From assembly GCA_964291285.2 (NCBI GenBank), contig OZ219785.1, positions 864,001 through 928,000 on the forward strand: a stretch of 64,000 nucleotides of DNA, in the 5' to 3' direction. Below are positions 6,518 to 40,865 of the stretch, piece by piece. The stretch comes from Alphaproteobacteria bacterium (lineage in GTDB: Bacteria; Pseudomonadota; Alphaproteobacteria; Bin95). The notes under the pieces were generated by a model. That model had not been told where the DNA came from. It was given only the letters and a program-made list of their open reading frames with translations, and did not search any database. Position 1 is the stretch's first letter; every line of letters starts with the position of its first letter. A program made the translations under genes and the position numbers.

Positions 6518-6547
6518 TGATTGTCCGCCTCCCGGAACGGCGCTGTC

Positions 6548-7048: not shown

Positions 7049-7111
7049 GGTCGGAAGGCTCCCGGACGGACAAAGCGGCGGCGATGCCGGCCGGAGCCGT
7101 GTCCGGCCGGT

Positions 7112-7181
7112 TCAGCCGCGCTTTCGTCGGAGCCAGCGAACCATGGATGCAAGACTAACCCGGATTTCCAGCCCTTGTCAC
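7112..7181 (-). promoter_or_regulatory. Putative sigma70 promoter plus near-leaderless Arg-rich uORF (MVRWLRRKRG) upstream of the GNAT gene
   Basis: GTGACA (7181-7176) and TAGTCT (7157-7152) on the minus strand, ATG at 7144, TGA ending 7112, followed by a CCGGCCGG-stem hairpin. Confidence 0.4.
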
Positions 7182-7198
7182 GGCCCGAACGGGACAGG

Positions 7199-7879: not shown

Positions 7880-8540
7880 TCCGCTTTCCTTCCTTGCCGA
7901 ACCGCCGCCGCGCCATACGCGGCGGACATTGCGAATGGCGCCGCCGGCGCAGCATGGCCCTCAGCCGGTCGCGGGTCAGCCGCCGGCCGGCGCCCGTCGG
8001 CACTACTATATCGGCGCGCTTGCGCTTTTCCGCATCTGCCATCTGTTTCGCACGCACGGAGTCGAGCAGCTCCCTTGTGACGCCGGGGCGGGCCAGCACG
8101 CGGGCCGCCTGGATATGCGCCGGCGCAGAGACGACGACGGTCCAGTCGCAGCGCTTCTCGCCGCCCGTTTCGAAGAGCAGCGGCACATCGCGCACCACCG
8201 CCCGCCGGCGCTCGCGCGCAGCCCGGCGCAGGAAGGCGCGTTCGGCCCGCCCGACCAAAGGATGCACGATGCGCTCCAGCCGCCGGAGCGCGTCCGCGTC
8301 TGCGAACACGACGTCCCCGAGCGCGCGCCGGTTGACCGCGCCATCGCTGACCGTGCCCGGAAAGGCCGCTTCGATGGGCGCCACGGCCGCCCCGCCGGCC
8401 GCCATCATGCGATGCACCGCGGCATCGGCGTCGAACACGGGCAGCCCGGCCTCGCGCAGCATGGCGGCGGCGGTGCTCTTGCCCATGCCGATGGAGCCGG
8501 TGAGGCCGAGCACGCGGGGCAGGGTGCGCCGGCGCTTCAC
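7872..8540 (-). CDS. coaE: Dephospho-CoA kinase
   Basis: GLTGSIGMGKST P-loop, DAD, VPLLFE. Confidence 0.95.
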   Translation of the reverse strand: MKRRRTLPRVLGLTGSIGMGKSTAAAMLREAGLPVFDADAAVHRMMAAGGAAVAPIEAAFPGTVSDGAVNRRALGDVVFADADALRRLERIVHPLVGRAERAFLRRAARERRRAVVRDVPLLFETGGEKRCDWTVVVSAPAHIQAARVLARPGVTRELLDSVRAKQMADAEKRKRADIVVPTGAGRRLTRDRLRAMLRRRRHSQCPPRMARRRFGKEGKRNA

Positions 8541-9376
8541 AGCCCGGCCAGCACGCTTTCGCGGAGCGCGTCATCCACTTCCGGGTCGGTGCCGAACCAG
8601 GCCGCGAAACCGGGCCGGGCCTGGTGCAGCAGCATGCCGAGCCCGTCCACTGCGGCGAGGCGGCGCCGGCGCGCGACGGCGAGCAGCGGCGTTTCAAGCG
8701 GCACATAGACGATGTCGTTCACCACCGCGTCTTCCGGCAGCGCGTCGAGGGAAATCTCCAGCGGCGGGCTGCCGGTCATGCCGAGGCTTGTGGTGTTGAC
8801 GAGAAGGCCCGCGCCGTCGAGCGCCGCATCCCGCTCCTCCCATGCTATCGCCGTCATCGGCCCGCCGATCTCGTCCACAACCGTTTCGGCCCGCGCGGCC
8901 GTTCGATTGGCGAGCCGCACTTCCGATGCACCGGCATCGACCAGCGCCGCCGCCACCGCGCGCGCCGAGCCGCCCGCGCCGAGCACGACCGCCACGCCCG
9001 GCCGCCAGTCCGGCGCGGAGGCGCGCAGATGCTCCAGGAAGCCGTAGGCGTCCGTATTGCTGCCATGCAACGAGCCGTCCTCGCGCGCCACGACCGTGTT
9101 GACTGCGCCGATGCGCCGGGCGACCGGGTCCGCCTCGTCCACTGCCCGGAGCGCGGTTTCCTTGTGCGGCAGGGTGACATTGGTGCCGGAGAAGCCCAGC
9201 CGCGGCAGCATGCGGATGGCGTCATAGCCGTCTTCGGGACGCACCGAATAGGGGATATAGGCGCCGTCTATGCCGTAGCGCGCGAGCCAGTGGCCGTGGA
9301 TCGCCGGCGAACGCGAATGCGAGACCGGCCAGCCCATGATGCCGGCCACCTTCGCCGCCCCGGTCAGCATGCCCAT
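8537..9376 (-). CDS. aroE: Shikimate dehydrogenase
   Basis: HSRSP, NVTLPHK, GAVNT, NTD, GAGGSA, GLGMLLHQA. Confidence 0.95.
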   Translation of the reverse strand: MGMLTGAAKVAGIMGWPVSHSRSPAIHGHWLARYGIDGAYIPYSVRPEDGYDAIRMLPRLGFSGTNVTLPHKETALRAVDEADPVARRIGAVNTVVAREDGSLHGSNTDAYGFLEHLRASAPDWRPGVAVVLGAGGSARAVAAALVDAGASEVRLANRTAARAETVVDEIGGPMTAIAWEERDAALDGAGLLVNTTSLGMTGSPPLEISLDALPEDAVVNDIVYVPLETPLLAVARRRRLAAVDGLGMLLHQARPGFAAWFGTDPEVDDALRESVLAGL

Positions 9377-9975
9377 GCCGGCACCCCCTCGCCGCGCAGG
9401 AATTTCAGCAGCGGCAGCAGCGGCAGCCCCAGCACGGTGAAGAAGTCTCCCTCCACGCGCTCGAACAATTGCGCCCCCGGCCCTTCCAATTGGTAGGCCC
9501 CGACCGAATCGAGCGCCGCGGGCCCGACGGTTGCCAGATAGGCGTCGATGGCCGCCGGGGTCAGGGACCGCACCGCGAGCCGGGCGCGCTCCGTCCGCTT
9601 CCAGAGAACGACCCCGTCCCTGAGCGCGGCGGCAGCCGTCACCAGTTCGTGTTCGCGCCCCGAGAATGCTGCGAGATGGGCGGCTGCTTCGCCCAGGTCC
9701 CGCGGCTTGTCGAAACGCCGGTTGCCCATGACCAGCAGTTGGTCCGCGCCGAGCACCAGCCGGCCGGGATGCGCTGCCGCGACGGCCGCCGCCTTGGCTT
9801 CCGCCAGCGCCAGCACAAGGGAGTCGTGATCGAGCTTGTCGAACGCCGCTTTCACCGGGTCTTCATCGACGCCGGAGGCGATCTGCTCCACCGGCACCCC
9901 GGCGGAGGCAAGCAGGCGCGCCCGCACCGTGCTGGCCGAAGCCAGGATCGGTGGTTCACCCGGCCGTACTGCCAT
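9364..9975 (-). CDS. maf: Maf-family nucleoside triphosphate pyrophosphatase
   Basis: ILASASTVR, LAEAKA, GADQ, SVGAYQLEG, GLPLLPLL. Confidence 0.9.
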   Translation of the reverse strand: MAVRPGEPPILASASTVRARLLASAGVPVEQIASGVDEDPVKAAFDKLDHDSLVLALAEAKAAAVAAAHPGRLVLGADQLLVMGNRRFDKPRDLGEAAAHLAAFSGREHELVTAAAALRDGVVLWKRTERARLAVRSLTPAAIDAYLATVGPAALDSVGAYQLEGPGAQLFERVEGDFFTVLGLPLLPLLKFLRGEGVPAWAC

Positions 9976-10786
9976 GGGCGCGCTCTTCCAGCAGGCGGAT
10001 GATGCCGGCCGCCGTTTCCTCGATGGACCGCCTGGTAACGTCGATGGACGGCCAGCCCTTTTCGGAAAAGAGGCGGCGCGAGGCGGCGACTTCGATCCGC
10101 ACCCGGTCGAGGTCCACATAGTTGGTTTCGCGCTGCTCATGCAGTGTGCGCAGACGGTTGCGCCGCACCTGCACCAGCCGGCCTGGATCGACCGTGAGGC
10201 CCACCACCAGCGGGCGCGTCAGTTGCATCACCTGCTCCGGAAGCGGCACTTCCGGCACGAAGGGCACATTCGCCGCCTTGTAGCCGAGATTGGCGAGATA
10301 GATGCAGGTCGGCGTCTTGGAGCTGCGGGAAACGCCGATCACGACAACATCCGCCTCGTCGAGGTCGTCGCTCATCTGGCCGTCGTCATGTACCATGGTA
10401 AACTGCATGGCGTCGATGCGGTCGAAATACCGGTCATCGAGCCTCTGGCGCCGGCCGGGGCGGTGATGGGCCCGCCGGCCGGCCCATTCGCTGATAGCCG
10501 TCACCGGCTCGTCAAGCAGCGAGACGAAGGGCGCGCCGGCCTCACGGCAGGCAACTTCGAGCAGGTGGCGGAGCTGGTCGTTGACAACCGTCGCGAGCAC
10601 CACGCCCGGGGTGGCGCGAATGCCTTCGATCACGCCCAGTAACTGGTCGGTATTGCGGATGAGGACCCAGAAATGCTCCCGGACCGCTATGCCGTCGAAC
10701 TGGCTGACACAGGCCCGGCCGAGCGTGCGCACGGTCTCTCCGGTCGCATCGGAGACCAGATGCAGGTGAACCACCGGATTATCCAC
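9956..10786 (-). CDS. ppsR: Pyruvate,water dikinase regulatory kinase/pyrophosphorylase (DUF299)
   Basis: HLVSDATGET, HDDG, GVSRSSKTPTCIYLA, DVTRRSIEETA; GTG start inferred. Confidence 0.9.
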   Translation of the reverse strand: MDNPVVHLHLVSDATGETVRTLGRACVSQFDGIAVREHFWVLIRNTDQLLGVIEGIRATPGVVLATVVNDQLRHLLEVACREAGAPFVSLLDEPVTAISEWAGRRAHHRPGRRQRLDDRYFDRIDAMQFTMVHDDGQMSDDLDEADVVVIGVSRSSKTPTCIYLANLGYKAANVPFVPEVPLPEQVMQLTRPLVVGLTVDPGRLVQVRRNRLRTLHEQRETNYVDLDRVRIEVAASRRLFSEKGWPSIDVTRRSIEETAAGIIRLLEERAHGSTAG

Positions 10787-11030
10787 GCAACCTCCGGGGA
10801 AAAGCGGTGCAGAACCGGAGGCCACTGATAACACACCCGACTCTCCCGCCGCGCCCCCAAACCGTCCCCAGCCGGAAAAGGACAACTTCAATCCCGTGGA
10901 TAACGGGAGCAGGCGCATCCCGGTGCAGCTTTCTCGAATGGCACGCAGGGGATAATGCCTGTTTCCACAGCCGGGAGCGGCTATATAGAAAAAACAAGAA
11001 TTCAGAATCTCTTCTATCCGGTTAAGGAAG
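10779..11030. other. oriC: Probable chromosomal replication origin (oriC)
   Basis: Lies between DUF299 and hemE, the known alphaproteobacterial origin position. DnaA-box-like 9-mers at 10779-10787 (TTATCCACG), 10895-10903 (rev TTATCCACG), 10947-10955 (rev TTATCCCCT) and 10961-10969 (GTTTCCACA), then an AT-rich tract at 10981-11025. Confidence 0.75.
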
Positions 11031-11044
11031 CGCTGCCGGCCGGT

Positions 11045-12049
11045 ATGGTCAAACCCCTCCTGAGAGCCCTTGCAGGCGAGACCGTGCGTCCGGCGCCGTT
11101 CTGGCTGATGCGCCAGGCCGGGCGCTACCTGCCGGAATACCGGAAACTGCGCGCCTCGGCGGACAGCTTCCTCGACCTCTGCTTCTCCCCGGCGCTCGCG
11201 GCGGAGATCACGCTGCAGCCGGTGCGCCGCTTCGATACCGATGCCGCGATCCTGTTCTCGGACATCCTGACGATTCCGCATGCGATGGGCCAGGAGGTGC
11301 GTTTCGTGGAAGGAAAGGGGCCTATCCTGGAGCCTCTCGATCCTGCCTCATTGCACCCCGTGGAAGACCGCCTGGATGCTGTTTACGAAGCGATCAGCCT
11401 GACACGAGCAAACCTGCCCGGCCAAACGGCGCTGATCGGCTTTGCAGGCGCGCCCTGGACGATGGCGGCCTATATGGTCGAAGGAGGCTCCAGCCGCGAC
11501 TGGCTCAAGGTCCGGCAGATGGCATCCGGCGACCCGGAGCGTTTCGCGGCGCTGATCGACCGTCTTGTGGACGCCACGGTCGATCATCTGGCGGCGCAGG
11601 CGGCGGCCGGGGCGGAGGCGCTGCAGCTGTTCGACAGCTGGGCGGGGCTGTTACCGCCTTCGGCCATGAGACGCTGGTGCCTGGAGCCGGCGCAGCGGAT
11701 CGCAGCGGCGTTGAGGGAACGCCATCCCTCCGTGCCGCTGATTCTCTTCCCGCGCGGTGCCGGTGTGCTTGCCGCCGAGTTCGCCGGAGTCGGCGATTGC
11801 GTCGGCCTCGACACGAGCACGGACCCGTGCTGGGCGGCGCAGGCCATTCAAGGTGACGCGGCCGTTCAGGGCAATCTCGATCCCATGCTCCTGGTCGTCG
11901 GCGGCGATGCAATGCAACGAGCGGCCCGGGAGATCCTCTCCGAACTCCGCAGTGGCCCGCATATTTTCAATCTCGGCCATGGCGTCCTGCCGATCACGCC
12001 GCCGGAGCATGTCGCCGCCCTGCGGCGGATCGTGCGGGAGACACCGTGA
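11045..12049 (+). CDS. hemE: Uroporphyrinogen decarboxylase
   Basis: WLMRQAGRYLPEY, AAILFSDIL, FNLGHG. Confidence 0.95.
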   Translation: MVKPLLRALAGETVRPAPFWLMRQAGRYLPEYRKLRASADSFLDLCFSPALAAEITLQPVRRFDTDAAILFSDILTIPHAMGQEVRFVEGKGPILEPLDPASLHPVEDRLDAVYEAISLTRANLPGQTALIGFAGAPWTMAAYMVEGGSSRDWLKVRQMASGDPERFAALIDRLVDATVDHLAAQAAAGAEALQLFDSWAGLLPPSAMRRWCLEPAQRIAAALRERHPSVPLILFPRGAGVLAAEFAGVGDCVGLDTSTDPCWAAQAIQGDAAVQGNLDPMLLVVGGDAMQRAAREILSELRSGPHIFNLGHGVLPITPPEHVAALRRIVRETP

Positions 12050-13062
12050 GCCGGCTGGCCGTCATCCTCTTCAACCTTGGCGGGCCCGACAGCCCGGAAG
12101 CCGTCAAGCCCTTCCTGCGCAACCTGTTTTCCGACCCCGCCATCCTGACGGTCCCGGCTCCCGTCCGCTTTTTTCTGTCGCGCTACATCGCCAGCCGGCG
12201 GGAAACACCGGCGCGCGCGGCCTATGAGCAGCTGGGCGGGGCCTCGCCGTTGCTGGCGCAGACCGAGGAACAGGCCCGGGCGCTTGAAGCCGCACTGGGG
12301 GCGCGGGGACAGGAGGCGCGCTGCTTCATTGCGATGCGCTACTGGCATCCGCACGCGGCGGCGGCGCTTGCGGCGGTTCGCGACTACCGCCCGGACGAAA
12401 TCGTGGCCCTGCCGCTCTATCCGCAGTTCTCGACCACTACTTCGGGGTCGTCGCTCGCCGAATGGCGGAAATTGGCGGGAGCGGATGCTCGGCTGCGGGT
12501 ATTGTGCTGCCATCCGCTGCTGGAGGGACTGGTCGAAGCCTGGGCGGAGCCGCTTGCCGAGGCTGTCCGGCGGGCGCGCGCCGCGGGCCCGGTCCGCGTG
12601 CTGTTCACCGCGCACGGCTTGCCGGAGCGGGTGATTGCGAAGGGGGATCCCTATGCGTGGCAGGTGGAGCGGACGGCCGAAGCGCTCCGCGCTGCTGCCG
12701 AGGCGAGGCTGGGCGAACTCAATGACATCGACTGGCGCGTGACCTGGCAGAGCCGGGCCACGCCGGAAAAATGGCTCGAGCCCGACACGGAGGCGGAGGT
12801 TGAAGCGGGCGCAAGGGAAGGGCTGGCGCTGGTGCTGGCGCCGATCGCGTTCGTCTCCGAACATTCCGAGACGCTGGTGGAGCTCGACATCGAATACCGG
12901 GCCGTGGCGGAGCGGGCCGGTGCCGCAGCCTGGGAGCGCGTGGCGACGCCGCGCACCGCGCCTTCCTATATCGAGGGCCTGGCGGCGCTGGTGCTCGACC
13001 GCCGGCCGCGAAAACGGCTCTGCCCGGTCTCCTGCACCGGCTGCCCGGTCGCCGCCCGATGA
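12046..13062 (+). CDS. hemH: Ferrochelatase
   Basis: NLGGP, MRYWHP, LPLYPQFS, TAHGLP, FVSEHSETLVELD. Confidence 0.95.
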   Translation: MSRLAVILFNLGGPDSPEAVKPFLRNLFSDPAILTVPAPVRFFLSRYIASRRETPARAAYEQLGGASPLLAQTEEQARALEAALGARGQEARCFIAMRYWHPHAAAALAAVRDYRPDEIVALPLYPQFSTTTSGSSLAEWRKLAGADARLRVLCCHPLLEGLVEAWAEPLAEAVRRARAAGPVRVLFTAHGLPERVIAKGDPYAWQVERTAEALRAAAEARLGELNDIDWRVTWQSRATPEKWLEPDTEAEVEAGAREGLALVLAPIAFVSEHSETLVELDIEYRAVAERAGAAAWERVATPRTAPSYIEGLAALVLDRRPRKRLCPVSCTGCPVAAR

Positions 13063-13505
13063 CCTGGCTCTTCGCGCTCTATCCCTGGATCAAGGCGCTG
13101 CATATCGCGGCCATCGTCTTCTGGATGGCCGGGATGCTCTATCTGCCGCGCCTCTTCATCTACCACCTGGAGACTAAACCCGGCGCCGCCGACAGCGAGC
13201 GTTTCAAGCGAATGGAGCGGCGCCTGCTCAGGGTCATCATCAACCCGGCGATGATCGCGGCCTTCCTGTTCGGCGGGCTCCTGCTCTGGGTCTCGCCGAA
13301 CATGGACTGGGCCGCCGGCTGGCTCTGGGGCAAGCTCGCCGCCGTCGCCGTCATGGCATGGCTGCACCACCTCTTCGCGCGCTGGCGCAAGCATCTCGAC
13401 GAAGACGGCAGAAGCCTTTCCGCGCGTCGCTGCCGCCTCGCCAACGAAGCCCCGGCGCTGCTGACCCTCGCCATCGTCATCCTGGTCGTCGTCAAGCCGT
13501 TCTGA
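13059..13505 (+). CDS. hemJ: Protoporphyrinogen oxidase HemJ
   Basis: KALHI...WMAGMLYLPRLFIYH, ERRL, NE, VVVKPF end. Confidence 0.92.
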   Translation: MTWLFALYPWIKALHIAAIVFWMAGMLYLPRLFIYHLETKPGAADSERFKRMERRLLRVIINPAMIAAFLFGGLLLWVSPNMDWAAGWLWGKLAAVAVMAWLHHLFARWRKHLDEDGRSLSARRCRLANEAPALLTLAIVILVVVKPF

Positions 13506-13548
13506 ATGCGAAAATTGGCGGTAGTATGGACGTGCAGGAGGGAGCCGC

Positions 13549-14994
13549 ATGGCCGTTGACGAACCGCGTTTCCTGATCGTGGCGATGGACGGGCTCCGGC
13601 CCGACATGATCTCGGAGGAGGCCTGCCCGGCAGTGGCGCGCTTCATGGGCGAGGGCTGCGTGTGGCCGAACGCGCGGACGGTGTTCCCGAGCGAGACCCG
13701 CGTCGTCACGCCGACCGTGGCCACGGGCGCCTGGCCCGCCCGGCACGGGCAGATCGCCAACACCTTCCCGACGCCCGGCAACGGGCCGCTCATCAACACC
13801 GCGCCGGTCGAGGGCCTGCTGGCGGCGGTGGAGCATTTCGGCGATGCGCTGGTCGCCGCGCCGTCGCTGGGGGACCGGCTGGCGGCCGCGGACAGGCGCT
13901 ATGTCGTCGTCTCGTCCGGCACGGCCGGCAATGCGTATTGCCTCAATCCCCGCGCGCGGGGGCGCAACCAGGCGACCTTCTCGGTGCAGGGGCCGGAGAT
14001 CAGCACGCCGGCGGCCGACCATGCGGGGATCGAGGAGCGGCTGGGGCCCGTGCCGGCGCAGGCGATGCCGAACAATGCGCGATGCCGCTACGCGACGCGC
14101 GTGCTCCTGGAGGAGATGTTTCCCCGGCACGACCCCCATGTCGCCGTGGTCTGGTATTCCGAGCCCGACATCGCCATGCACTATGCCGGCATCGGTTCGG
14201 ATGCCTGCCGGGAGGCGCTCGCCTGCGTGGACGCGGAATTCGCGCAGGTCCTCGCCGCGCTCGAAGCGAGGCCCGACGCCGCGCGCTGGAATGTCATCCT
14301 GCTCTCCGACCACGGACAGGTGACGATCCGCGAGAAGATCGACGTGGCCGCGGAAATGCGCGCTGCGGGCTTCCGCGCCGGGCCGCGGCTCGATGCCGAC
14401 ACCGACTATGCGGTCGTCTCGTCCTCCTGCGGCAATGTCGTGAGCCGCGACGGCCGGGTCGCGAAGCTGGCGGACTGGATGCGCGAGCAGCCCTGGGCGG
14501 GGCTGCTGTTCGCGCGCGGCGTCAACGAGGTGGAGGGCCATGTCGCCGGCAGCTTCTCGCTCGGGCTGGTGGGGCTCGACCATGAGCGCACGCCGCATCT
14601 GGTCTATACGCTCGGCCAGGACGACGGCGACAACCGCTGGGGCTTCGCCGGCGGCGCGCTTGCCGGCATGGACGACTCGCCGCCGCCGGAGTTCGGCGGC
14701 ATCCACGGCGGCCTGCACCCGAAGGAGCTGTCCTGCCTGCTGGCGGCGCGGGGGCCGCACTTTCCCGCAGCCGCCGCGGCCGAGGCAGCGGTCGGGCCCA
14801 TAGACATCGCGCCGACCGTGCTGGAGGCCTTCGGCATCGCGCCGGCGGAAACGGTCGCCGGCGGGCCGCTGGTGCGCCCGGGCATCCCGAAGCGCCGGGC
14901 GTTCGAGACCGGCGCGGGCAGCTATGCGGCGCGTATCGACATGCTGGAAATCGGCGGCCGGCGCTATCTGGACTCGGGCCGGCGGGCGAGCTGA
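13549..14994 (+). CDS. Alkaline phosphatase superfamily protein (NPP/phosphonoacetate hydrolase-like)
   Basis: MDGLRPD, FPSET nucleophile region, EPDIAMH, SDHG, GIHGG. Confidence 0.8.
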   Translation: MAVDEPRFLIVAMDGLRPDMISEEACPAVARFMGEGCVWPNARTVFPSETRVVTPTVATGAWPARHGQIANTFPTPGNGPLINTAPVEGLLAAVEHFGDALVAAPSLGDRLAAADRRYVVVSSGTAGNAYCLNPRARGRNQATFSVQGPEISTPAADHAGIEERLGPVPAQAMPNNARCRYATRVLLEEMFPRHDPHVAVVWYSEPDIAMHYAGIGSDACREALACVDAEFAQVLAALEARPDAARWNVILLSDHGQVTIREKIDVAAEMRAAGFRAGPRLDADTDYAVVSSSCGNVVSRDGRVAKLADWMREQPWAGLLFARGVNEVEGHVAGSFSLGLVGLDHERTPHLVYTLGQDDGDNRWGFAGGALAGMDDSPPPEFGGIHGGLHPKELSCLLAARGPHFPAAAAAEAAVGPIDIAPTVLEAFGIAPAETVAGGPLVRPGIPKRRAFETGAGSYAARIDMLEIGGRRYLDSGRRAS

Positions 14995-32526: not shown

Positions 32527-32580
32527 GCGGGCCGCCGCCGGCCCTTGCCGCGCGCCGGCCGGGTTCCTATGCTGCGGGGC

Positions 32581-33084
32581 ATGACCGGGGCCATCGCCTT
32601 CGACACCCACCGCTTCGTGAAGCGCCTGACGGAGGGCGGCTTCACCGAGAAGCAGGCCGAGACCCTGGCCGAAGAGCAGGTCGCCCTGCTCAACACCAAC
32701 CTGGCGACCAAGGCCGACATCGCAGCGGCGCAGACCGACATCGCGGCAGTCGAGGCCGGGCTGAAGGCCGACCTCGCGGCAGTCGAGGCCGGGCTCAAGG
32801 CCGATCTCGCAAATGTCGAGGCCGGGCTGAAGGCCGATCTCGCAAATGTCGAGGCCGGGCTCAAGGCCGATCTCGCGAAGGTCGAGGCCGGGCTCAAGGC
32901 CGAGATCGCGAGGGTCGAAGGCGGACTCAAGACCGAGATCGCGAGGGTCGAAGGCGGGCTCAAGGCCGAGATCGCGAGGGTCGAAGGCAGCATCGAGGCT
33001 GTCAAGGCCGACCTTCTGAAATGGATGTTCGGCGCGCTGATCGCCCAGGGCGGGCTGATCGTCGCCCTGGTCAAGCTGCTGTAG
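32581..33084 (+). CDS. DUF1640/CCDC90-like coiled-coil membrane-anchored protein
   Basis: FDTHRFVKRL...GFTEKQAE, LATKAD, 11-aa repeats, C-terminal LLKWMFGALIAQGGLIVALVKLL. Confidence 0.85.
   Translation: MTGAIAFDTHRFVKRLTEGGFTEKQAETLAEEQVALLNTNLATKADIAAAQTDIAAVEAGLKADLAAVEAGLKADLANVEAGLKADLANVEAGLKADLAKVEAGLKAEIARVEGGLKTEIARVEGGLKAEIARVEGSIEAVKADLLKWMFGALIAQGGLIVALVKLL
32749..32979 (+). repeat. Seven tandem 33-bp coding repeats (VEAGLKADLAx / VEGGLKxEIAR)
   Basis: Read directly in DNA and protein. Confidence 0.9.
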
Positions 33085-33111
33085 CACCGGTCGGGTTCCG
33101 GGAGGCCGCCG

Positions 33112-33350
33112 CGCCGGCCCTTGCCGCCTGCCGGCCGGATTCCTATGCTTCGGACTATGACCGGGGCCGATATGGAGGCGCCGCGCGTCGATGTCACGGG
33201 AAACGCGGCCCGGCTCAGGGCCGAGTTTGCCGAGGTCGTGGGGGGATTGGGATCGTGCTCGCAAAGTTCAAGGCGGATTTCCTGAAATGCATGTTCGGCG
33301 CGATGATCGTCCAGACTGTGGCGATCGTCGCCCTGACTAAGCTGCTGTAG
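33112..33350 (+). pseudogene. Degenerate second copy of the DUF1640-like gene
   Basis: Upstream and start sequence GCCGGCCCTTGCCGC...TTCCTATGCT...ATGACCGGGGCC repeats 32537-32592; the 3' end encodes KADFLKCMFGAMIVQTVAIVALTKLL-stop; the middle is deleted or frameshifted. Confidence 0.7.
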
Positions 33351-33378
33351 CGCCGGGCTTGAATTGCTGCGACCAGAG

Positions 33379-33708
33379 ATGGCTGACAGGTTCAAGAGGT
33401 CGGCAGCCGTGCCGTTCAATCACAACATGCTCCTCCGCTTGCCGAGCGTTGAGCATACCGTTTACCTGTTTTGGTCGACATCGAAGACCCGGGCGGTATA
33501 TGTGGGCAAGACGGACCGGCCTATACGCCACCGGATGCGGGAGCACTGGCGAGATAGCAGCAATCCGATACTGAAGACTTGGATCGATTGGGCTGCTGAC
33601 GACCTCCTGATGTGCTATATGGAGGTGCCGTGGCCCGATGTGGTCAAGGTGGAGCGTCGGATGATTCGGGCGCTCGATCCTATAGCAAACGACCAGTACA
33701 AACGCTGA
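33379..33708 (+). CDS. Stand-alone GIY-YIG nuclease
   Basis: VYLF...VYVGKT..IRHRMREH...E..MI...PIAN matches the GIY-YIG Tyr/Tyr-Gly/Arg/His/Glu/Asn pattern. Confidence 0.8.
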   Translation: MADRFKRSAAVPFNHNMLLRLPSVEHTVYLFWSTSKTRAVYVGKTDRPIRHRMREHWRDSSNPILKTWIDWAADDLLMCYMEVPWPDVVKVERRMIRALDPIANDQYKR

Positions 33709-34575
33709 ACTGAGGGAATTGGTATGGCCAGCACACTTCCGGCGATGAAGGGCAGCATGGGTGGGACTGAGTACTATCTGATTTCATTGAAGGCCAGTGA
33801 ACTAGTAAATTTGGTCAAGCTGCCGAAGGATATGCCGGGTTGGGACAACCAAACAATCGAGGAAATTTACCAGCGGAATATCAACGAAACGAGGGTGAGA
33901 AATCAAATCGCTCCCTATTTGGCAAAAAACAAGGATACGCGCTTCTTTGGTGCATTGATTGTAGCCGCCTTTAATTTCGATGAGAATGTATATTTTACTC
34001 CTTTGCGGCAAATCGGCGCCGTTTCGGAAAACCGCTTGAGGCCGGAAGAAAAAGAGGCAGCCGACAAGATAGGTATATTGACGCTTGGAGGAGGAGTGAT
34101 GATGGTGCCATTGGATGGGCAGCATCGTTTGCGAGCGCTTGATTTCGCTATGCGCGGCAAAGACCATGCAAACAAAGATATCCCAGGGATCGATGTAGAC
34201 CCCGATCTGGCCAATGAAGACATTTCGGTTATCCTCGTCCCTTATGAGGCGCAAAAGGCGAGGAGGATATTTACCAGGGTAAACAGATATGCGCGACAGC
34301 CAACAGCCTCTGAAACCTATGTGACCGACGATGAGGATGTGTATGCGGTTTTAGCCCGCCGAGTAGCAAATCAGATTGGCGGGCGACTGGTAAAGTATAC
34401 AAGCCCAACCCTTACCCCTACAGACGAGGAATTTACGACACTTGCGATTTTACGTTCGTGTTGTCAGAACATTGTGAAGGCAAGCTTTCCCGATAAGCTT
34501 GTGGCTGCTGCTGAGGGATTGGATGAAGGGGCCGTCGATGCATGTACAAGGAAGGTGTTAGAAATCTGGAGAAGA

Positions 34576-35357
34576 TTAGGTCCTGTGGACGGATTTGATC
34601 AAGATGAAGGCAGCGGCGAGTGCGACGAAGGAGCTGAAGTTTGTGGCGGTCTTTTCGCAGCGCAGGGCGATGCGTTTGAAGCGTTTGAGCTTGCCGACGG
34701 CCTGTTCGATGCGCGCCCGTCCTCTGTAGAGCGCGCTTGCGAAGCGCTTTGGCCTGTTTTTGATGTTCTTCCGGTAGGGAATGACGGTCAGGGCGCCTCT
34801 TTTCCGGGCGAGTTGGCGGTTTCCGGCGCTGTCATAGCCCTTGTCGGCGACGATGGCGCGGGGCCGGACATCGGGGCCGATGTCCATCAGGGTCTCGAAA
34901 TGCGGACTGTCGGCTGCCTCGCCGCCGGTCAGGTCGAAGGCGATCGGCAGGCCGTCGAAATCGGTCTTCAGGTGGATTTTGGTGCTGAAACCGCCCCGCG
35001 AGCGTCCAAGCGCCTGACCCTGCTGCCCCCTTTTGCGCCGGCCGCCGATACATGCGCGCGGGTCACGGTCGAATCGAACATCTGAACCAGGTGCGCCGTG
35101 CTGCTCAAATCCGCCAGCGTGGCGAAAAAGTCCTCGAACACCCCTGAACGGCTCAGACGGTGAAAACGCCGCCATACCGTATTCCAGTGCCCGAACCGCT
35201 CCGGCAGCGCCCGCCAGGTGATGTTGTGAACCGCAAAGAAGTGCAGCGCCTCCAGAAACAGACGGTCGTCCTTCGCCTTCGCACCCCGCCTCGGAAGGCA
35301 AAGCCGGAAAACCTCCAGCGCAACCTCCCAGTCTCCATTCGTCATCTTCGTCGACAT
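34576..35357 (-). CDS. IS5-family transposase, two ORFs joined by a probable programmed frameshift
   Basis: OrfA WRALPERFGHWNTV..RF, DST; OrfB GRSRGGFSTKIH, ADKGYD, R.RIE..KRFKRIA.R; slippery AAAAGGGGG at 35034-35026. Confidence 0.85.
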
Positions 35358-35453
35358 CAACGAAACCCCCGAATCGCCGACGCCTCATGATTCAGACAAA
35401 TCCTCGCACGGGAATCCCTGAACACGCTCCTGAGTCAATACGTCCACAGGGCC
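34579..35453. mobile_element. IS5-family (IS427-like) insertion sequence
   Basis: IRs GGTCCTGTGGACG (34579-34591) / CGTCCACAGGGCC (35441-35453); TA duplication at 34577-34578 and 35454-35455. Confidence 0.88.
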
Positions 35454-35775
35454 TAGTCACGAAGGTGGAGGTCTTTGCAGATTTAACTGCAGACATATCT
35501 GAAGCTGGAGATGGAAAGCGCAAGGATATTAGAAGAATCAATCTGTTGGGTAAGCCTGTGCCGCAGGAATGTCTTGTGTCGGCCTACTTGGCACTGGTAG
35601 ATGATCCGACCAACATGAGCTGGGAAGACGCTTGTCGAGCTCTGAATGCGCTGCCGTGGGAGATTAACGAACGGAATACGGGAGAGATTTGGCAGAATGT
35701 CCTTTGGACAGGGGGGATGGATGGGCGAATTATTACAAATTCGAAAAATCGCTCTATTTCGTCCCGTATGATTAG

Positions 35776-37725
35776 TTATATGGCGGGAGAAATTTTGACC
35801 GAGGAGCAGCAAGACGGATTGTTACAAGAATTCCGCACCTTGTTCCCGGAGGATGTGGCCGCAAGAAAGAGCTTGCCGGAGAAAGTCCAAATAGCAGAAC
35901 CGGAATAGACTAGTACGATTAGTAAGCGGTCACACAGGGCGCGAAAACGCCATAGTTTTGCCGCTGCAAGAGCAAAGGTTTCTGATCGGGCGTCTATATT
36001 GGCAGGGGACCATTCTCGGTATTTGGCCAAGTCTCTGGTTATACGGAATGGGCTATCCTCGAATACCGGTCGCTTGCTTTCGAAGGATGCGTTGAAGCGG
36101 CCACGAGAGTAACTGTCATTGTGACCGAGAAGGGTCAAGTTTCCGAGCCGTGGGATCCAATCACCCAGGTCCGGCCCGATGTCACCGAATTCCTGCCATC
36201 CGGACCAGTGTTGAGCAGATTGGGGCAGCACGTGTTCCACGCTGCATCCAGCGTAGCTGAGTGCAGTGGCGTCGCGTTGCTGTTGTCCGTTCACTCCAAA
36301 CAGCAATCTCTTGGCTCTGCGGCGGTCGGTCAGGCGCGCATTTTTCAGTCGGTCGATGAAGTTTGCATCGGACATGATCTGCGACGAGTCGCAAGCAGAG
36401 AGATCGTCGAGAACGTCTAGGTCCTCGGCGTCTGTGTGCCCGATACCTGCTGCAATTCGCTGGGCACAATTCGCCAAAGCCGGTTCCACGCGGGAAGGCT
36501 CGAATTTGCCTTCGACAAAGGTGGTTCTCATTATGAACGTGGTAAGGTCGGCTATCGCTCGATAGACTGCTATCGCGACGGGGCGCTGAGTGGCGCGTTG
36601 GTGTAAGGCGATGGAGGTGAAGCGTCGAAGAAGAGCGAACAGGAGGGGATAGGTAACGGAGTATCCCCGGAGCTCGTCAAGGAATACGGAGAGATTTCGC
36701 TTATTGCTGGTGGTGCGGGATGCTCTATTGAAGTCCAAAAGGAATTCAGGGTTTGGATTTGTGGAGAATATTGTTCGGAACAATTCGACATTCTTGAGAT
36801 CGGTAAGGTCGTTTACAAGGGCAAGCACATAGTTTTTGGCGTGCTGACCGGTGGTTCGGTTTGAGGACGCATGCAAGATTGCAACGCGAGCGTTTCTGTA
36901 GAATCTGGTTTTCTGTAAATATCCATACCGATTTTGGAGATAGCATCTGAAATAATCTTGAGCGCGTTTGGGACTTCTTAAGGCCGCGAGCGCATTTTCT
37001 ATGTTGTAGTGAACAGATTCATATTGTTGAGTATCGCTGCCTCTGGAAAAATACGAATATATATGATTACGGATCAAATCTATATCTTCGAGAGGTTTAC
37101 CACGAGCATTTAGGGCCTCGAAAACTGCATTGGCGTCTTCGGTGGCAGGTATATAGAGAATTGTTATCTCGACTTTTTGTGTCACGAAGTCGAAAAATGT
37201 TTCGAATTCGCCTTCCTTCAGCGTCAGCAGAAATGAAGTAATGTCAGACCATGCAGACACAAGCTTGCCATTTGTGCCGACCTCATGCCCTTGTATGATT
37301 TGATGAAAGCGGGATCGATCTGAACGAGGGGGCGTAAGCCTAGGGGTTTCATTTTCCAGATTGTCGGAGTCGATTTCACGGTATATCGGCACATCGAATA
37401 AAGTTTTAAGTGAAATATCTTTGCGTTTTCCGTCCAAGTGTGGAGGGGTCTCAAAATGTCTGGCAAAGGCCGCGAAAATAAGCGACAAGGTCATCAACCG
37501 TTGCTGCCCGTCGTTGATTTCCCAATAACCCCCTCGTTGAATGAGCATGATCGAACCGAGAAAATACGATGGGCGGCTTGCGTCATGCGCTTCTTTTATG
37601 TCGGTCAGAAGCTCGTGCACATGCTCTGCGGTCCAGTCGTAGAAGCGTTGATGCCAAGGAACCTGGAAGCGTCCCTTGGCAAGAAGGTCCGGTACGAGAA
37701 GGACCTCGGACGAAATGGAGGTCAT
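35776..37725 (-). CDS. DUF262 + DUF1524 (GmrSD/SspE-type) NTPase-HNH nuclease
   Basis: VPWHQRFYDW, FLGSI, INDGQQRLMT, VFEALNARGKPL; C-terminal SVEHVLPQ...LGNLTLL...N..F..K; ATG overlaps the dndC stop (ATGA). Confidence 0.88.
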   Translation of the reverse strand: MTSISSEVLLVPDLLAKGRFQVPWHQRFYDWTAEHVHELLTDIKEAHDASRPSYFLGSIMLIQRGGYWEINDGQQRLMTLSLIFAAFARHFETPPHLDGKRKDISLKTLFDVPIYREIDSDNLENETPRLTPPRSDRSRFHQIIQGHEVGTNGKLVSAWSDITSFLLTLKEGEFETFFDFVTQKVEITILYIPATEDANAVFEALNARGKPLEDIDLIRNHIYSYFSRGSDTQQYESVHYNIENALAALRSPKRAQDYFRCYLQNRYGYLQKTRFYRNARVAILHASSNRTTGQHAKNYVLALVNDLTDLKNVELFRTIFSTNPNPEFLLDFNRASRTTSNKRNLSVFLDELRGYSVTYPLLFALLRRFTSIALHQRATQRPVAIAVYRAIADLTTFIMRTTFVEGKFEPSRVEPALANCAQRIAAGIGHTDAEDLDVLDDLSACDSSQIMSDANFIDRLKNARLTDRRRAKRLLFGVNGQQQRDATALSYAGCSVEHVLPQSAQHWSGWQEFGDIGPDLGDWIPRLGNLTLLGHNDSYSRGRFNASFESKRPVFEDSPFRITRDLAKYREWSPANIDARSETFALAAAKLWRFRALCDRLLIVLVYSGSAIWTFSGKLFLAATSSGNKVRNSCNNPSCCSSVKISPAI

Positions 37726-38888
37726 GCAGGAGCGGCTGCTGCAGTAAGAGCGAGGCGAGCGCGCTCGGCGGCTTCGTCGCGCCACCACACATCCCGGATG
37801 CTCTCGATTTCCGCCGGGAGAATCAGCGTTTCGCCGAGTGTCTCTTGCAAGGCCAGCAATTTGTCGAGGATTGTCTGGCGCACCTCAAGGCGGAACGGCC
37901 CCATCACATAAGAACCGTCCGCGCGGCGGCGGGGGTTGCCGTCGCGCCGCACGGGCAGACGGTTGCCGTCGTCCTCGCGGAGTTCCACGAGCCACTCGCG
38001 GAAATCGAGCAGGGATTCCATCGTCTCCGTCTCGGCATGACCGGAGTCTATCAGGCCTTGCAGACTGCGGTCCTTCTTGACCACGGTGCAGGTCCAGCAG
38101 CCGAAGCGGGGCGAGGAGGTGCCGCAGGATGGCGCATCCTCCTTCGTCATCACCAGGGGGCACTCGCCGCCGCCGGCCGAGCGGTAGAGCGCGATCAGCC
38201 GGCGGTGGCTGCCGCCCCAGGGCGGCCGGCGCTGCATGAGCACCATCCACACGTCCTCGTCGTCGAGATCGGCGAGCGGCGCGAACATCCGGCATTCCTC
38301 GATGGAGCCGTGCGGATTGAGCGCCGTCGCGGTGACCTCCCGGCGCTCCATGCTGCGCTGCCGGTTCTGCGATTCGCTGCGTCGCGTGCCGATCAGCAGC
38401 ACGGCCCCGCCGTGCCGGGCGACCACGCCGCGGATGAGGCGGTCGGTCGGCAGGATTTTCATGCGGTCGGTGCACCACCGGAAATTGCGGGTCGGCGGGA
38501 TATAGCCCCGCCCGATGACACTGACCCAGAATGTCTGGTCTATGGCCGGCGTCGTGATGCGGACTGTGAGCGGTATGTTGTCGGCTTCGGCGGCGGCGCG
38601 GATCGCGTCGGCGGAGTCCCGGAGATGCCGGATCACCAGGGGCGATTCGACCCGCGTATCGTTGCCCACCACGATGATGTCGCGCCGGGCCTGCTCCGGG
38701 GGAAGGGCCGCGACCGTCTCCCAGACCAGTTGCAACAGCAGGGTCGAATCCTTGCCGCCCGAATAAGCGACCAGCCATGGATGCGAATGTTCCCGGCAAT
38801 ATTCTTCCCGAAGCACGTCCCGGATGCGGTCCAGCCGCTCCGGCAAGCTGGCAAGGTCGTCCCGGAGTGCCGGGGAGGCCGCGCTCAT
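37722..38888 (-). CDS. dndC: DNA phosphorothioation sulfurtransferase DndC (PAPS-reductase family)
   Basis: PWLVAYSGGKDS, DTRVESP, TFWVSVIGRGY.PP..FRWCTDRMKI.P, LY..A.GGECP, SCG..RFGCWTCTVV.KDRS, GPF..E.R; 388 aa. Confidence 0.9.
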   Translation of the reverse strand: MSAASPALRDDLASLPERLDRIRDVLREEYCREHSHPWLVAYSGGKDSTLLLQLVWETVAALPPEQARRDIIVVGNDTRVESPLVIRHLRDSADAIRAAAEADNIPLTVRITTPAIDQTFWVSVIGRGYIPPTRNFRWCTDRMKILPTDRLIRGVVARHGGAVLLIGTRRSESQNRQRSMERREVTATALNPHGSIEECRMFAPLADLDDEDVWMVLMQRRPPWGGSHRRLIALYRSAGGGECPLVMTKEDAPSCGTSSPRFGCWTCTVVKKDRSLQGLIDSGHAETETMESLLDFREWLVELREDDGNRLPVRRDGNPRRRADGSYVMGPFRLEVRQTILDKLLALQETLGETLILPAEIESIRDVWWRDEAAERARLALTAAAAPA

Positions 38889-40069
38889 GCGGCGATGCTC
38901 CGCAGCACGGACACGGCTTCCGCAACCCGGCCGGCGGCAAGGTCGATCTCCGCCCCGGTCGTATAGCGTCCGAAGCTGAACCGCACCGAGGACAGCGCGG
39001 CCGTGGGGCTCATTCCCATGCCCAGCAGCACATGGGACGGCTCGACCGCTTCCGAAGTGCAGGCGGAGCCGGTCGCCAGGGCAACGCCGTCCAAAGCCAG
39101 CAGCAGCGACTCCGCCGCCACGCCGTCGAAACACATATTGAGGATGCCGGGCGCCCGGTCGACCGCGCCTGCATTGACCGCTGCGCCGGCAATCCCTTCC
39201 AGCTTCCGCAGCAGGCGCGCATCCAGCGCGGCGATCCGGCGCGAGTCGCATTCGAGGCGTTCGCGCACAAGGCGCGCGGCGGCGCCCATGCCCACGATCT
39301 GGTGCGTCGGCAGCGTGCCCGGCCGGAAGCCCCTCTCCTGCCCGCCGCCATGCGTCTGCGGGACGAGGGCCGGCAGCAGCCCGCGCCGGACATAGAGCGC
39401 GCCCACGCCCTTGGGGCCGTACATCTTGTGGCCGCTCAGCGAAAGCATGTCGCAACCGAGCCGGGACACGTCGAGCGGGAGGCGGGCGGCGCTCTGCACG
39501 GCGTCCACATGGAGCATCGCACCCGCCTTGCACACGACGCGAGAGACGGCCGGAATATCCGTGACTGCCCCGGTCTCGTTGTTGACATGCATGAGCGAGA
39601 CGAGGGCGGTGTCCGCGCGCAACACGGAAGCGACGGCATCCGGTCCGATCCGGCCTTCGGCGTCCGGCTGGACGGCGGTGACTTCGAAACCCGCCCCGGA
39701 GAGCCAGTGCGCGGTGTCGAGGACCGCCTTGTGCTCCAGTGCCGAGACCACGAGGTGGCGGCCCCGCGCCTGCCGGGAGAGCAGCAGGCCCTTGAGGGCG
39801 AGATTGATGGATTCGGTCGCCCCGGAGGTCCACAGGATTTCCCCGGCCCCGGCCCCGACCAGCGCGGCGACTTCCCGGCGAGCCGTCTCGACGGCTTCCA
39901 GTGCCGCATGGCCGAAACTGTGGGTGATCGAGGACGGGTTCCCGAATATGCCGTCCGCCGTGAGGCAGTCGGCCATCGCTTCCGCGACTTCCGGCGCAAC
40001 CGGCGTCGTTGCGGCGTAGTCCAGATAGACTCCGCCTGCCGGCTGTCCCCCGGTTTTCCGGCGCCCCAT
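38885..40069 (-). CDS. dndA: Cysteine desulfurase (DndA/IscS-like)
   Basis: YLDYAATTP, GNPSS, TSGATES, HVNNETG, HVDAVQ, SGHKMYGPKG (PLP Lys), GSACTS catalytic Cys; ATGA overlap with dndC. The dndA name rests on context. Confidence 0.85.
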   Translation of the reverse strand: MGRRKTGGQPAGGVYLDYAATTPVAPEVAEAMADCLTADGIFGNPSSITHSFGHAALEAVETARREVAALVGAGAGEILWTSGATESINLALKGLLLSRQARGRHLVVSALEHKAVLDTAHWLSGAGFEVTAVQPDAEGRIGPDAVASVLRADTALVSLMHVNNETGAVTDIPAVSRVVCKAGAMLHVDAVQSAARLPLDVSRLGCDMLSLSGHKMYGPKGVGALYVRRGLLPALVPQTHGGGQERGFRPGTLPTHQIVGMGAAARLVRERLECDSRRIAALDARLLRKLEGIAGAAVNAGAVDRAPGILNMCFDGVAAESLLLALDGVALATGSACTSEAVEPSHVLLGMGMSPTAALSSVRFSFGRYTTGAEIDLAAGRVAEAVSVLRSIAA

Positions 40070-40150
40070 GCTCTGTGGCCTTTCCGCGTCGGGATGTCCG
40101 CCACCGTTCCTGACGCTCTCCCGCCATTGTGGTCCGGCCCGGAATCGCCG

Positions 40151-40193
40151 GTCAAGCCCCCCCGACCCGCTTGACAATGTTCCCTCTATGTGC
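40151..40193. promoter_or_regulatory. Divergent promoter region with back-to-back -35 boxes and a LexA-box-like site
   Basis: GTCAAGC (40151-40157) / GCTTGAC (40169-40175) inverted repeat; TTGACA at 40171; GTTC-N7-GTGC at 40179-40193. Confidence 0.45.
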
Positions 40194-40229
40194 TTTTCCC
40201 GCGCCACCCAGGCAAGGAGGACGGCTACT

Positions 40230-40607
40230 ATGCCGCGTGCGTTTTCTCTCGACCTGCGCAAGCGGGTGGTCGAGGCGGTGGAGGCGGGGATGAGCCAGCG
40301 GGCGGCGGCGCGGCGGTTCGCCGTCGGCAAGTCCACCGTTGCGGAATGGCACAAGCTCCGGCGCGAGCGCGGCCACCTGCGCCCCGGAAAGCCCGGCGGC
40401 CCCCGTCCCTCGCCGGTCGAGGACGAGCGCTGCTTCCTGCTCGGCCTGCTGGAGGGCGACCCGAACCTCTCCATCGCGGAGTTGCGCGCGGCGCTGGCGG
40501 AACGGGGCGTGGTCGTGAGCATGACCGCCGTGCAGAAATTCCTCAAGCGCCACGGCGTCAAGCGCTGGCCGGGGCGCCGCCCGCTCAAGCCGCGGCGGCG
40601 GCGCTGA
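40230..40607 (+). CDS. Stand-alone IS630-type helix-turn-helix protein (no DDE domain)
   Basis: AAGGAGG RBS; FSLDLRKRVV...G.S.RAAARRF.VGKSTV..W...G...P..L.ELRAAL.ERGV.VS; basic C-tail then stop. Confidence 0.75.
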   Translation: MPRAFSLDLRKRVVEAVEAGMSQRAAARRFAVGKSTVAEWHKLRRERGHLRPGKPGGPRPSPVEDERCFLLGLLEGDPNLSIAELRAALAERGVVVSMTAVQKFLKRHGVKRWPGRRPLKPRRRR

Positions 40608-40865
40608 ACCGGCCGGGCGGCCGGACTACAGGGGATCATTGCCAGGCCGGTTCCGGACGGCGGGCAAACGGAGGACGCACGTCTCCTGTCTGGCGGCCGA
40701 CACCGGCCTTCACCCTTCCGGTTCCTTCGAGAACGGCGCCCCGCCGCCGTCCTATGCCCAAGTCATGCCCCCGCTCTCCCGTTGCGGCAGGCCCCGTATA
40801 TGGGGCGGACGCGCGGGAATTCAAGCATCTGGAAGGAAATAAATCCAGATTCGTGCCCGCCCGCC

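Follow-up and report, generated by a model that had tools for sequence, protein, structure and literature searches.

Does a cysteine desulfurase gene that is followed by dndC and a nuclease gene, without dndD or dndE, represent the remnant of a Dnd-type DNA phosphorothioation (PT) locus or a conserved module in its own right? This question is raised by an island at positions 33379-40607 of a 64,000 nucleotide stretch of the alphaproteobacterial contig OZ219785.1, the whole of which is referred to here as the window. Three genes on the minus strand form its core, namely dndA (38885-40069), encoding an intact IscS/NifS/DndA-type cysteine desulfurase of 394 amino acids, dndC (37722-38888), encoding an intact short-form PP-loop ATP pyrophosphatase of 388 amino acids with conserved cysteines, and a gene (35776-37725) encoding a DUF262/DUF1524 protein, a GmrSD-family, DndI-like nucleoside triphosphatase (NTPase)-nuclease. 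As the initial annotation had recorded, these genes are chained by two ATGA stop/start overlaps, at 38885-38888 (dndA/dndC) and 37722-37725 (dndC/DUF262), and they face two genes on the plus strand encoding a GIY-YIG and a DGQHR protein. We suggest, with a probability of roughly 0.55, that the island encodes a pair of modification enzymes independent of DndD and DndE and a DndI-like nuclease, accompanied by a second, exchangeable nuclease arm.

Profile searches among the open reading frames (ORFs) of the island returned no match to DndD, DndE, DndFGH, SspB or SspC, and none of these Dnd and Ssp components was found among the 121 other window ORFs of at least 180 amino acids (e-value ≤1e-8), where the sole match was a DEDDh exonuclease; the earlier observation that they are unrecognisable in the window thus holds. 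The recurrence of the module was evaluated in the best 80 of 552 relatives of the window DndC in a genome collection, all of them metagenome-assembled genome (MAG) records, from twelve named phyla. A DUF262/DUF1524 homolog is located directly downstream of dndC in 75/80 loci, and dndA directly upstream in 64/80. The genes share in-frame NTGA overlaps at the dndC/DUF262 junction in 55/75 loci (ATGA in 33) and at the dndA/dndC junction in 42/64 (ATGA in 37). DndD-like sequences are limited to weak partial matches in three of the 80 loci, to a protein of the second locus described below, and are found on the other strand or beyond the DUF262/DUF1524 gene in the downstream direction. The notion of close homologs that all reside in canonical dndBCDE clusters, which the initial annotation had raised as an objection, does not hold for these 80 loci. 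Thirty of the 80 carrier genomes, selected as chromosome or complete sequences by record title, were furthermore searched for both proteins. DndE (PF08870) is present in two and absent from 28, and DndD (TIGR03185) exceeds its cut-off in the same two genomes and reaches an e-value of 1e-10 or below in seven. The proposal of a minimal DndA and DndC writer adjacent to an SspE/GmrSD-type nuclease, without DndD or DndE, is therefore supported by comparative genomics. In addition, the three genes occupy the same chromosomal site, with both flanks in common, in two loci from the related-locus sets that served as nucleotide-level comparators (L006 and L007).

The presence of dndD or dndE elsewhere in the genome had also been named as a point against a minimal system. 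To the letter both are present, in a second, lower-GC Dnd-type locus on another contig of the same genome (C3:1520000-1528000, within locus L005 at C3:1514000-1533999; genes 6255-14001, minus strand); however, the dndC gene of this locus belongs to a different clade and the locus leaves the window module unexplained. It encodes a short-form DndC of 415 amino acids, a DndD/PbeC-like ATP-binding cassette ATPase (TIGR03185: 198 bits, under the cut-off of 245.85; PADLOC PbeC: 1.3e-207), a 510 amino acid fusion of DndE with a HerA/FtsK-like protein in which DndE forms the N-terminal domain only, a 162 amino acid remote GIY-YIG homolog, a DGQHR protein (425 amino acids) and a 265 amino acid protein of unknown function. 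This fusion contains the only DndE domain of the genome, and the only DndD-like gene, which falls below the cut-off, is that of C3. Among the 80 loci with a C3-type dndC, a DndD-like gene is next to it in 78 and the DndE::ATPase fusion is found in 72, and neither DUF262 nor dndA occurs in any (0/80). The C3-type core of dndC, ATPase and fusion is also found in cultured Elioraea, Paracoccus and Stenotrophomonas. In a FastTree phylogeny of 173 rows, from which one row shorter than 300 residues was left out, all 81 rows of window type fall into a single clade (support 89) and the C3-type rows, together with four sampled alphaproteobacterial rows, into another (support 93), a separation that is partly by construction as each set of 80 loci was picked by similarity to its own query. 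The informative part of the tree is the strict match of DndC clade with gene architecture. On the basis of the linkage in 75/80 and 64/80 loci, the absence of DndE from 28/30 genomes and the opposite pattern in the C3 clade, the explanation of the module as the deletion remnant of a canonical dnd cluster was rejected. Its gene content, linkage and conservation and its independence from DndD and DndE are regarded as established. A genome of the same genus as that of the window (G342) contains no DndC match at all, and both Dnd-type loci are therefore accessory within the genus.

The dndA product matches the Pfam Aminotran_5 family (276.8 bits) and scores 434 bits against NCBIfam IscS and 375 bits against DndA (TIGR03235), under the equivalog cut-off of both, with similar support from the PADLOC models for SspA (1.9e-140) and DndA (2.2e-136). 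Over residues 1-394 it shares 92% and 84% amino acid identity with its counterparts in L006 and L007, respectively. The DndC protein exceeds the TIGR03183 equivalog cut-off (331.1 bits; cut-off: 290.4), with only positions 7-364 of the 447 in the model matched, and is of DndC rather than SspD type (PADLOC e-values: 6e-111 versus 3.5e-5). A truncated dndC gene was considered and rejected, as 388 amino acids is a normal length for this clade, where ORFs are mostly of approximately 385-400 amino acids, and the short form is common: the C3 paralog matches positions 3-364, and the plasmid-borne DndC of a dndCDE cluster is short as well. Alphaproteobacterial DndC matches spanning model positions 9/10-444/445 were observed in L089 (G094) and L091 (G340), each with one in-frame stop; in these, the C-terminal part that is absent from the short DndC could be encoded by a gene of its own, or the dndC gene could be disrupted. 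No relative with more than 60% identity to the window DndC was found in a plasmid collection, the best (49%) being part of a canonical dndA-C-D-E cluster, and identity to the DndC proteins of canonical dndCDE clusters, such as that of a Mesorhizobium plasmid, is 40-50%. An SGGKDS motif and six cysteines (C139, C199, C243, C255, C264 and C267) are invariant among 20 DndC sequences. The predicted structure (predicted local distance difference test, pLDDT: 77) has APS (adenosine 5′-phosphosulfate) reductase, TtuA and NcsA, PP-loop proteins with a 4Fe-4S cluster, as its nearest folds (e-values: 1e-6 to 1e-5), and sequence and profile searches of the PDB with DndC yielded only PP-loop enzymes, at e-values above 0.01. 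The predicted fold and the motifs would fit a reaction of adenylation followed by sulfur substitution.

All three core genes are under purifying selection, with ratios of nonsynonymous to synonymous substitution (dN/dS) of 0.075-0.20 in comparison with L006 and L007 (dndA: 0.18-0.20; dndC: 0.14-0.18; DUF262/DUF1524 gene: 0.075-0.079). The product of the third gene matches the Pfam GmrSD_N (101.5 bits) and GmrSD_C (63.7 bits) families. Its best PADLOC models are HEC-06 (3.7e-62) and Orf5 (5.6e-50), the latter of which we take to be of DndI type, followed by SspE (6e-14), for which the models cover only the N-terminal 70-90 residues. The best match by sequence in the PDB is DndI (9JFL; e-value: 8e-10). 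This proximity to DndI, together with a DndC- rather than SspD-type enzyme, speaks against the earlier characterisation of the island as a hybrid of Dnd and Ssp. The DGQQR, QR, FxxxN, EHxxP and N...N motifs, compared with a GmrSD-family list given in a part of PMC4619093, are all invariant among 19 sequences of the protein. At the position of the PT-sensing Tyr25 of DndI the window protein has a histidine (H25), nearly invariant in the clade; this equivalence is tentative, as it is derived from a remote phmmer match.

The window ORF for this protein ends in a 55-residue C-terminal tail that occurs in none of 18 homologs, the conserved protein ending near 35944. Sequencing runs with contigs that align to the window (X1, X2 and X3, of which X2 and X3 share an organism label and study) clarify its origin. 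In an X2 contig a single additional base follows 35947, and with it the protein would be 598 amino acids in length, like its relatives. By comparison with that allele the window has a 1-bp deletion near 35947, to which the false 55-codon tail is attributed and which alters the extreme C-terminus only. This explanation replaced that of a recombination breakpoint as the origin of the tail; the breakpoint near the end of the gene in comparison with L006 and L007 still stands. A further relative, approximately 91% alike over dndC and DUF262, was detected in a sponge metagenome run (X4).

Composition and divergence change at the junction between dndC and the DUF262/DUF1524 gene. The window has a G+C content of approximately 70%, with a dip to approximately 0.50-0.55 across 33.4-37.7 kb. 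Exactly at the junction the G+C content falls from approximately 0.67-0.70 to approximately 0.50, a drop of 17 points in the window, and the step is also present in L006. Across the related loci the G+C content of the DUF262/DUF1524 gene is below that of dndC in 74/75 (median difference: 5.9 points). Synonymous divergence (dS) from L006 and L007 is 0.13 and 0.37 for dndC and 0.81 and 2.36 for the DUF262/DUF1524 gene, an approximately six-fold jump across the ATGA overlap. To judge from these sequence comparisons, the nuclease half of the module clearly changes more rapidly than the writer half.

The genes downstream of the core vary among the 80 loci. A cassette with SNF2 and ParB_N genes (type A) is present in 41 and a DGQHR cassette (type B) in 24, ten contain the core only, some of them on contigs that end early, and five lack the DUF262/DUF1524 gene. 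The type A cassette encodes an SNF2-family helicase of approximately 465 amino acids (PADLOC ZorD/DpdE-like helicase region), a ParB_N protein of approximately 275 amino acids and one or two unknown proteins of 240 and 345 amino acids without a family match (L008, L013, L022 and 38 others). GIY-YIG genes were detected in 23/24 of the type B loci, co-directional with the core in 20 and convergent in three, as they also are in the window. Of the five loci without the DUF262/DUF1524 gene, two (L056 and L060) likewise have a DGQHR gene, which follows dndC immediately in the former and lies approximately 1.7 kb downstream in the latter. Amino acid identity to the window DndC correlates with identity to the DUF262/DUF1524 protein (Spearman 0.75, n = 75), in comparison with 0.06 (n = 26) for the DGQHR protein, values that are descriptive only as the relatives are not independent. 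Between the window and L006 and L007, only positions 33356-35960 are without nucleotide similarity. The window DGQHR protein shares 42% identity with those of L006 and L007 and 72-74% with those of L018 and L031. Because this stretch is dissimilar to L006 and L007 and the DGQHR protein is near those of L018 and L031, the GIY-YIG/DGQHR pair must have been exchanged as a cassette.

The first gene of this pair (33379-33708, plus strand) is intact and encodes a small protein of 109 amino acids. Its Pfam GIY-YIG match is marginal (23.1 bits; cut-off: 22.6), and no Pfam family is matched by its L031 ortholog. The predicted fold (pLDDT: 92) is best matched in the PDB by the GIY-YIG domain of UvrC (template modelling scores: 0.66/0.75; root mean square deviation: 2.5 Å), and residues Y29, Y41, R52, E92 and N104 are retained across 18 sequences. 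As such, the modelled fold and the retention of the catalytic Tyr, Tyr, Arg, Glu and Asn residues confirm that the protein belongs to the GIY-YIG superfamily. The DGQHR protein, DndB-like and with a ParB fold, passes the TIGR03187 cut-off (87.5 bits; cut-off: 58.85), matches Pfam DndB (94.6 bits) and remains far under the cut-off of the DndB equivalog TIGR03233 (55.4 bits; cut-off: 328). Because the former threshold is passed and the latter missed, it is best classified as a DGQHR-domain protein and not as DndB proper.

Wherever both genes were detected, the GIY-YIG gene is directly beside that for DGQHR (23/23 loci). A complex of the two intact L031 proteins was predicted with a median ipSAE, a mark for predicted complexes, of 0.76, whereas none of three controls exceeded 0.00; contacts agreed to at least 97% between three runs, and the partner had a pLDDT of 78 or more. 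In calibration 58/80 solved complexes were recovered by this mark versus 2/110 mismatched pairs, a rough guide here as own alignments were used. The predicted interface comprises DGQHR residues 256-282 and 335-343, and the predicted complex supports binding of the GIY-YIG protein to the DGQHR protein. The 162 amino acid protein of C3, encoded before the C3 DGQHR gene, is a remote homolog of the window GIY-YIG family (hhalign probability: 93%; e-value: 3.3e-7), and both Dnd-type loci of this genome thus carry a small nuclease with a DGQHR partner. The conserved pairing and the predicted complex favour the earlier assignment of nicking to GIY-YIG and of sensing to DGQHR; the pair is an exchangeable accessory found in 24/75 loci rather than part of the core, and it is broken in the window.

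The break was caused by an 877 bp IS5-family insertion sequence (IS) with two overlapping transposase frames (34577-35453, minus strand), which splits the DGQHR gene after codon 285, between the two parts of the predicted interface. The 5′ fragment (33724-34578, plus strand; codons 1-285) corresponds in alignment to the first 285 residues of intact orthologs, with 74% identity to that of L031. The 3′ fragment (35457-35908, plus strand; approximately 150 codons), which matches intact orthologs over their C-terminal third, continues the reading frame of the 5′ fragment after removal of the IS and one TAG, and the two align end to end on the orthologs. The element is bounded by 31-nt inverted repeats (34574-34604 and 35428-35458) with TAG on both sides, its ends being ambiguous by the 3-bp TAG duplication, and matches the NF033580 IS5 transposase, DDE_Tnp_1 and DUF4096 families. 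Its sequence has 37 matches in the genome, of which 17 are full-length at 99-100% identity, with many partial copies. In contigs of X2 and X3 position 34576 is directly continuous with 35454, the IS being absent, at a depth like that of the flanks, and X1 contigs stop at the IS ends. The near-identical copies and the empty site in X2 and X3 show that the insertion in the DGQHR gene is recent and strain-specific, and both this lesion and the 1-bp deletion are regarded as established. The IS5-family element is actively expanding in this genome.

From the families represented we infer a substrate, a mark, its reading and a role in defence. DndA would take sulfur from cysteine and pass it to DndC. 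The latter, with its iron-sulfur-type set of cysteines, would adenylate a phosphate of the DNA backbone and swap oxygen for sulfur, as TtuA and NcsA do on tRNA and as is reported of TdpC, a single-enzyme writer. The DUF262/DUF1524 protein, combining a ParB-fold NTPase and a His-Me nuclease, would read the mark and nick unmarked foreign DNA, as DndI does. The GIY-YIG and DGQHR proteins may form a separate, exchangeable nuclease, in which a ParB-fold sensor would bind a minimal nuclease, and would provide a second restriction arm, lately disabled in this strain by the active IS5-family element. A more far-reaching version, to which we give somewhat less than an even chance, is that of a self-contained three-gene PT restriction-modification system, in which a single short PP-loop/Fe-S writer and its desulfurase act with a ParB-fold/His-Me partner responsible for both site choice and restriction, and which requires no scanning apparatus of ABC ATPase and DndE and has spread by transfer across at least twelve phyla of sponge-associated bacteria.

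Several characterised systems share components with this scheme. The IscS-DndBCDE system of Salmonella enterica Cerro 87 with DndI is a demonstrated PT-sensing defence in which DndI nicks unmarked DNA, as described in passages of PMC11662687. Like it, the window module links a cysteine desulfurase and a DndC writer to a nuclease with DUF262 (DGQQR NTPase) and DUF1524 (HNH-type) domains; unlike it, the module lacks DndB, DndD and DndE, and its short DndC lacks model positions 365-447. The window nuclease resembles DndI in its N-terminal DUF262 domain with DGQQR and its C-terminal DUF1524 His-Me motifs, but carries His in place of Tyr25, and its gene shows translational coupling to dndC instead of a location with dndFGH. 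The TdpABC system (An et al., Nat Chem Biol 2025), reported from extremophiles in a study whose title refers to an adenylated-intermediate mechanism, is said in passages of PMC12914056 that cite this study to need only tdpC for PT synthesis. No chain related to the Tdp proteins appeared in the PDB searches. TdpC, compared here by description only, would resemble the window writer in functioning without DndD/E-type partners, and a PP-loop enzyme fits adenylation; the restriction partners TdpA and TdpB, however, include no DUF262/DUF1524 protein. With SspABCD-SspE the module has in common the combination of a cysteine desulfurase, a PAPS (3′-phosphoadenosine 5′-phosphosulfate)-reductase-type enzyme and a DUF262/DUF1524 nuclease in one system, but it lacks SspB and SspC and its enzyme is of DndC and not SspD type. 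Passages in Rakesh, Aravind and Krishnan (2024; PMC10853773) treat the pair of DndD/CxC ATPase and DndE as the indispensable core, which served as the anchor of their survey and without which the system is nonfunctional. DndA and DndC are shared with that canonical DndABCDE scheme, and GIY-YIG (URI) nucleases and DndB-like ParB proteins are mentioned there in Dnd neighbourhoods; the C3 locus fits the CxC/DndE scheme, whereas the window module has neither DndD nor DndE. Finally, GmrS/GmrD, GmrSD and BrxU share the DUF262/DUF1524 architecture and motifs, and the GIY-YIG and DGQHR pair resembles a split version with another nuclease fold, but the targets of these known enzymes are modified cytosines, and genes for sulfur transfer are not linked to theirs.

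A number of observations weigh against the reading of an independent enzyme pair with a DndI-like nuclease. An adjacent dndA gene is missing from 16/80 loci and the DUF262/DUF1524 gene from 5/80. The presence of PT on DNA is presumed from family membership, the similarity to DndI is remote (e-value: 8e-10, in the N-terminal part), and with Tyr25 apparently replaced by His the reading of PT cannot simply be carried over from DndI. The C3 DndD-like ATPase and DndE fusion could act in trans in this genome, and the two lesions in nuclease genes could mean that the system is decaying here. Furthermore, an ATPase and a DNA-recognising partner are held necessary in parts of PMC12707154 and PMC10853773, and the core has only the NTPase domain of DUF262 to offer. 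This last point leads to the main alternative, itself unlikely, in which the DUF262/DUF1524 protein is itself part of the writer, replacing the functions of DndD and DndE (or of SspC and SspB), and the downstream cassettes are the restriction arms. According to a section of PMC12707154, three components are required to install PT, namely a PAPS-reductase-type enzyme, an ATPase and a part that recognises or nicks DNA, and this protein is the only candidate of the core for the latter two roles. The stop/start coupling to dndC (55/75), the co-inheritance with it (Spearman 0.75, n = 75) and a downstream cassette in 65/75 loci (41 type A, 24 type B) would be in keeping with such a role, as would the toleration of the IS-mediated loss of the GIY-YIG/DGQHR arm in this strain, which is expected if restriction is lost. 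However, the nearest characterised relatives, DndI, SspE, GmrSD and BrxU, are all restriction effectors according to passages of PMC11662687 and PMC12707154, the core stands alone in 10/75 loci, some of them on cut contigs, and the six-fold difference in dS and the lower G+C content (74/75) fit an effector in an arms race better than a fixed writer subunit.

The product of the DndC-like enzyme may alternatively not be PT in DNA, and instead be a stable adenylate, another sulfur adduct, thiolated RNA or a regulatory thio-nucleotide. The nearest solved folds, those of tRNA thiolases and APS reductase, include no DNA enzyme, there is no scanning ATPase, the PT-sensing Tyr of DndI is replaced by His, and Dnd-type cores are argued in part of PMC10853773 to be able to recruit other modifications; yet the DndC equivalog cut-off is passed at 40-50% identity to canonical DndC proteins, and DNA nucleases always, and a dedicated cysteine desulfurase usually, flank the gene, so that this is considered improbable. 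Still less probable is that the window DndA and DndC are redundant or decaying, and either depend on the C3 ATPase and DndE fusion or are idle. C3 does encode dndC, a DndD/PbeC-like ATPase and a DndE fusion, and two nuclease genes of the island carry lesions here, but the module is found in genomes without DndE (28/30) and without a DndD-like protein at an e-value of 1e-10 or below (23/30), the three core genes are under purifying selection, the C3 ATPase and its partner have their own dndC of another clade, and the lesions are absent from the sister samples and spare the conserved core. That the neighbours are unrelated, and a stand-alone type IV GmrSD-like enzyme lies by chance beside sulfur-metabolism genes, could be argued from the sharp step in G+C content and dS at the gene boundary and from HEC-06, a PADLOC candidate family, as the best PADLOC model; in view of the adjacency in 75/80 loci from twelve named phyla and the in-frame 4-nt overlaps in 55/75, this is the least credible explanation and very improbable.

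Little can be added from the flanks of the island. No direct repeats and no tRNA were found there as marks of an integration site, and in a promoter and terminator scan the counts were not above those of shuffled sequences, so that a single promoter-like site 57-86 nt ahead of dndA is no evidence. Outside the system, at 40068-40607 (plus strand), is the N-terminal helix-turn-helix (HTH) fragment of an IS630-family transposase (HTH_Tnp_IS630; only positions 2-116 of 299 in NF033545). This HTH-only fragment, observed at 40166-40662, is 83% conserved in L007; it is therefore an old relic, which today makes up the upstream region of dndA. At the opposite end, a gene encoding a DUF1640/CCDC90-like coiled-coil protein (32545-33356) contains seven to nine 33-nt tandem repeats (32699-33028), beyond which its 5′ end (33112-33168; 88%) and 3′ end (33268-33356; 81%) are duplicated in shortened form. 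The left boundary of the exchanged cassette coincides with these duplicate ends, which may be the trace of a recombination event.

The three-gene module is real and conserved, has been glimpsed in papers, and is partly damaged in the copy described here. Passages of Moeller et al. (2019; PMC6790972) mention dndA, dndC and DUF262/DUF1524 genes in sponge-associated Thaumarchaeota, and 'DUF262' is named near a dndC among potential new PT neighbourhoods in a part of PMC12914056. In the literature searched, with the supplementary tables of PMC10853773 and PMC12914056 outside the search, the module was not found described or tested beyond a sentence. What is new here is a widespread three-gene relative of known PT systems that lacks two parts thought indispensable. 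If our reading is correct, DndD and DndE would no longer constitute an indispensable core, and the module would represent a naturally occurring test of how little a writer requires and of how target sites are chosen. In a part of Horn et al. (2016; PMC5099237), Dnd is reported as enriched in sponge metagenomes 'even though not functionally complete'; the module would explain this signal, and is a tangible candidate for the 'incomplete' Dnd genes that abound in sponge microbiomes. Furthermore, defence modules can be seen here evolving by the exchange of cassettes at gene boundaries, and for the widespread, uncharacterised GIY-YIG/DGQHR pair a physical pairing is predicted.

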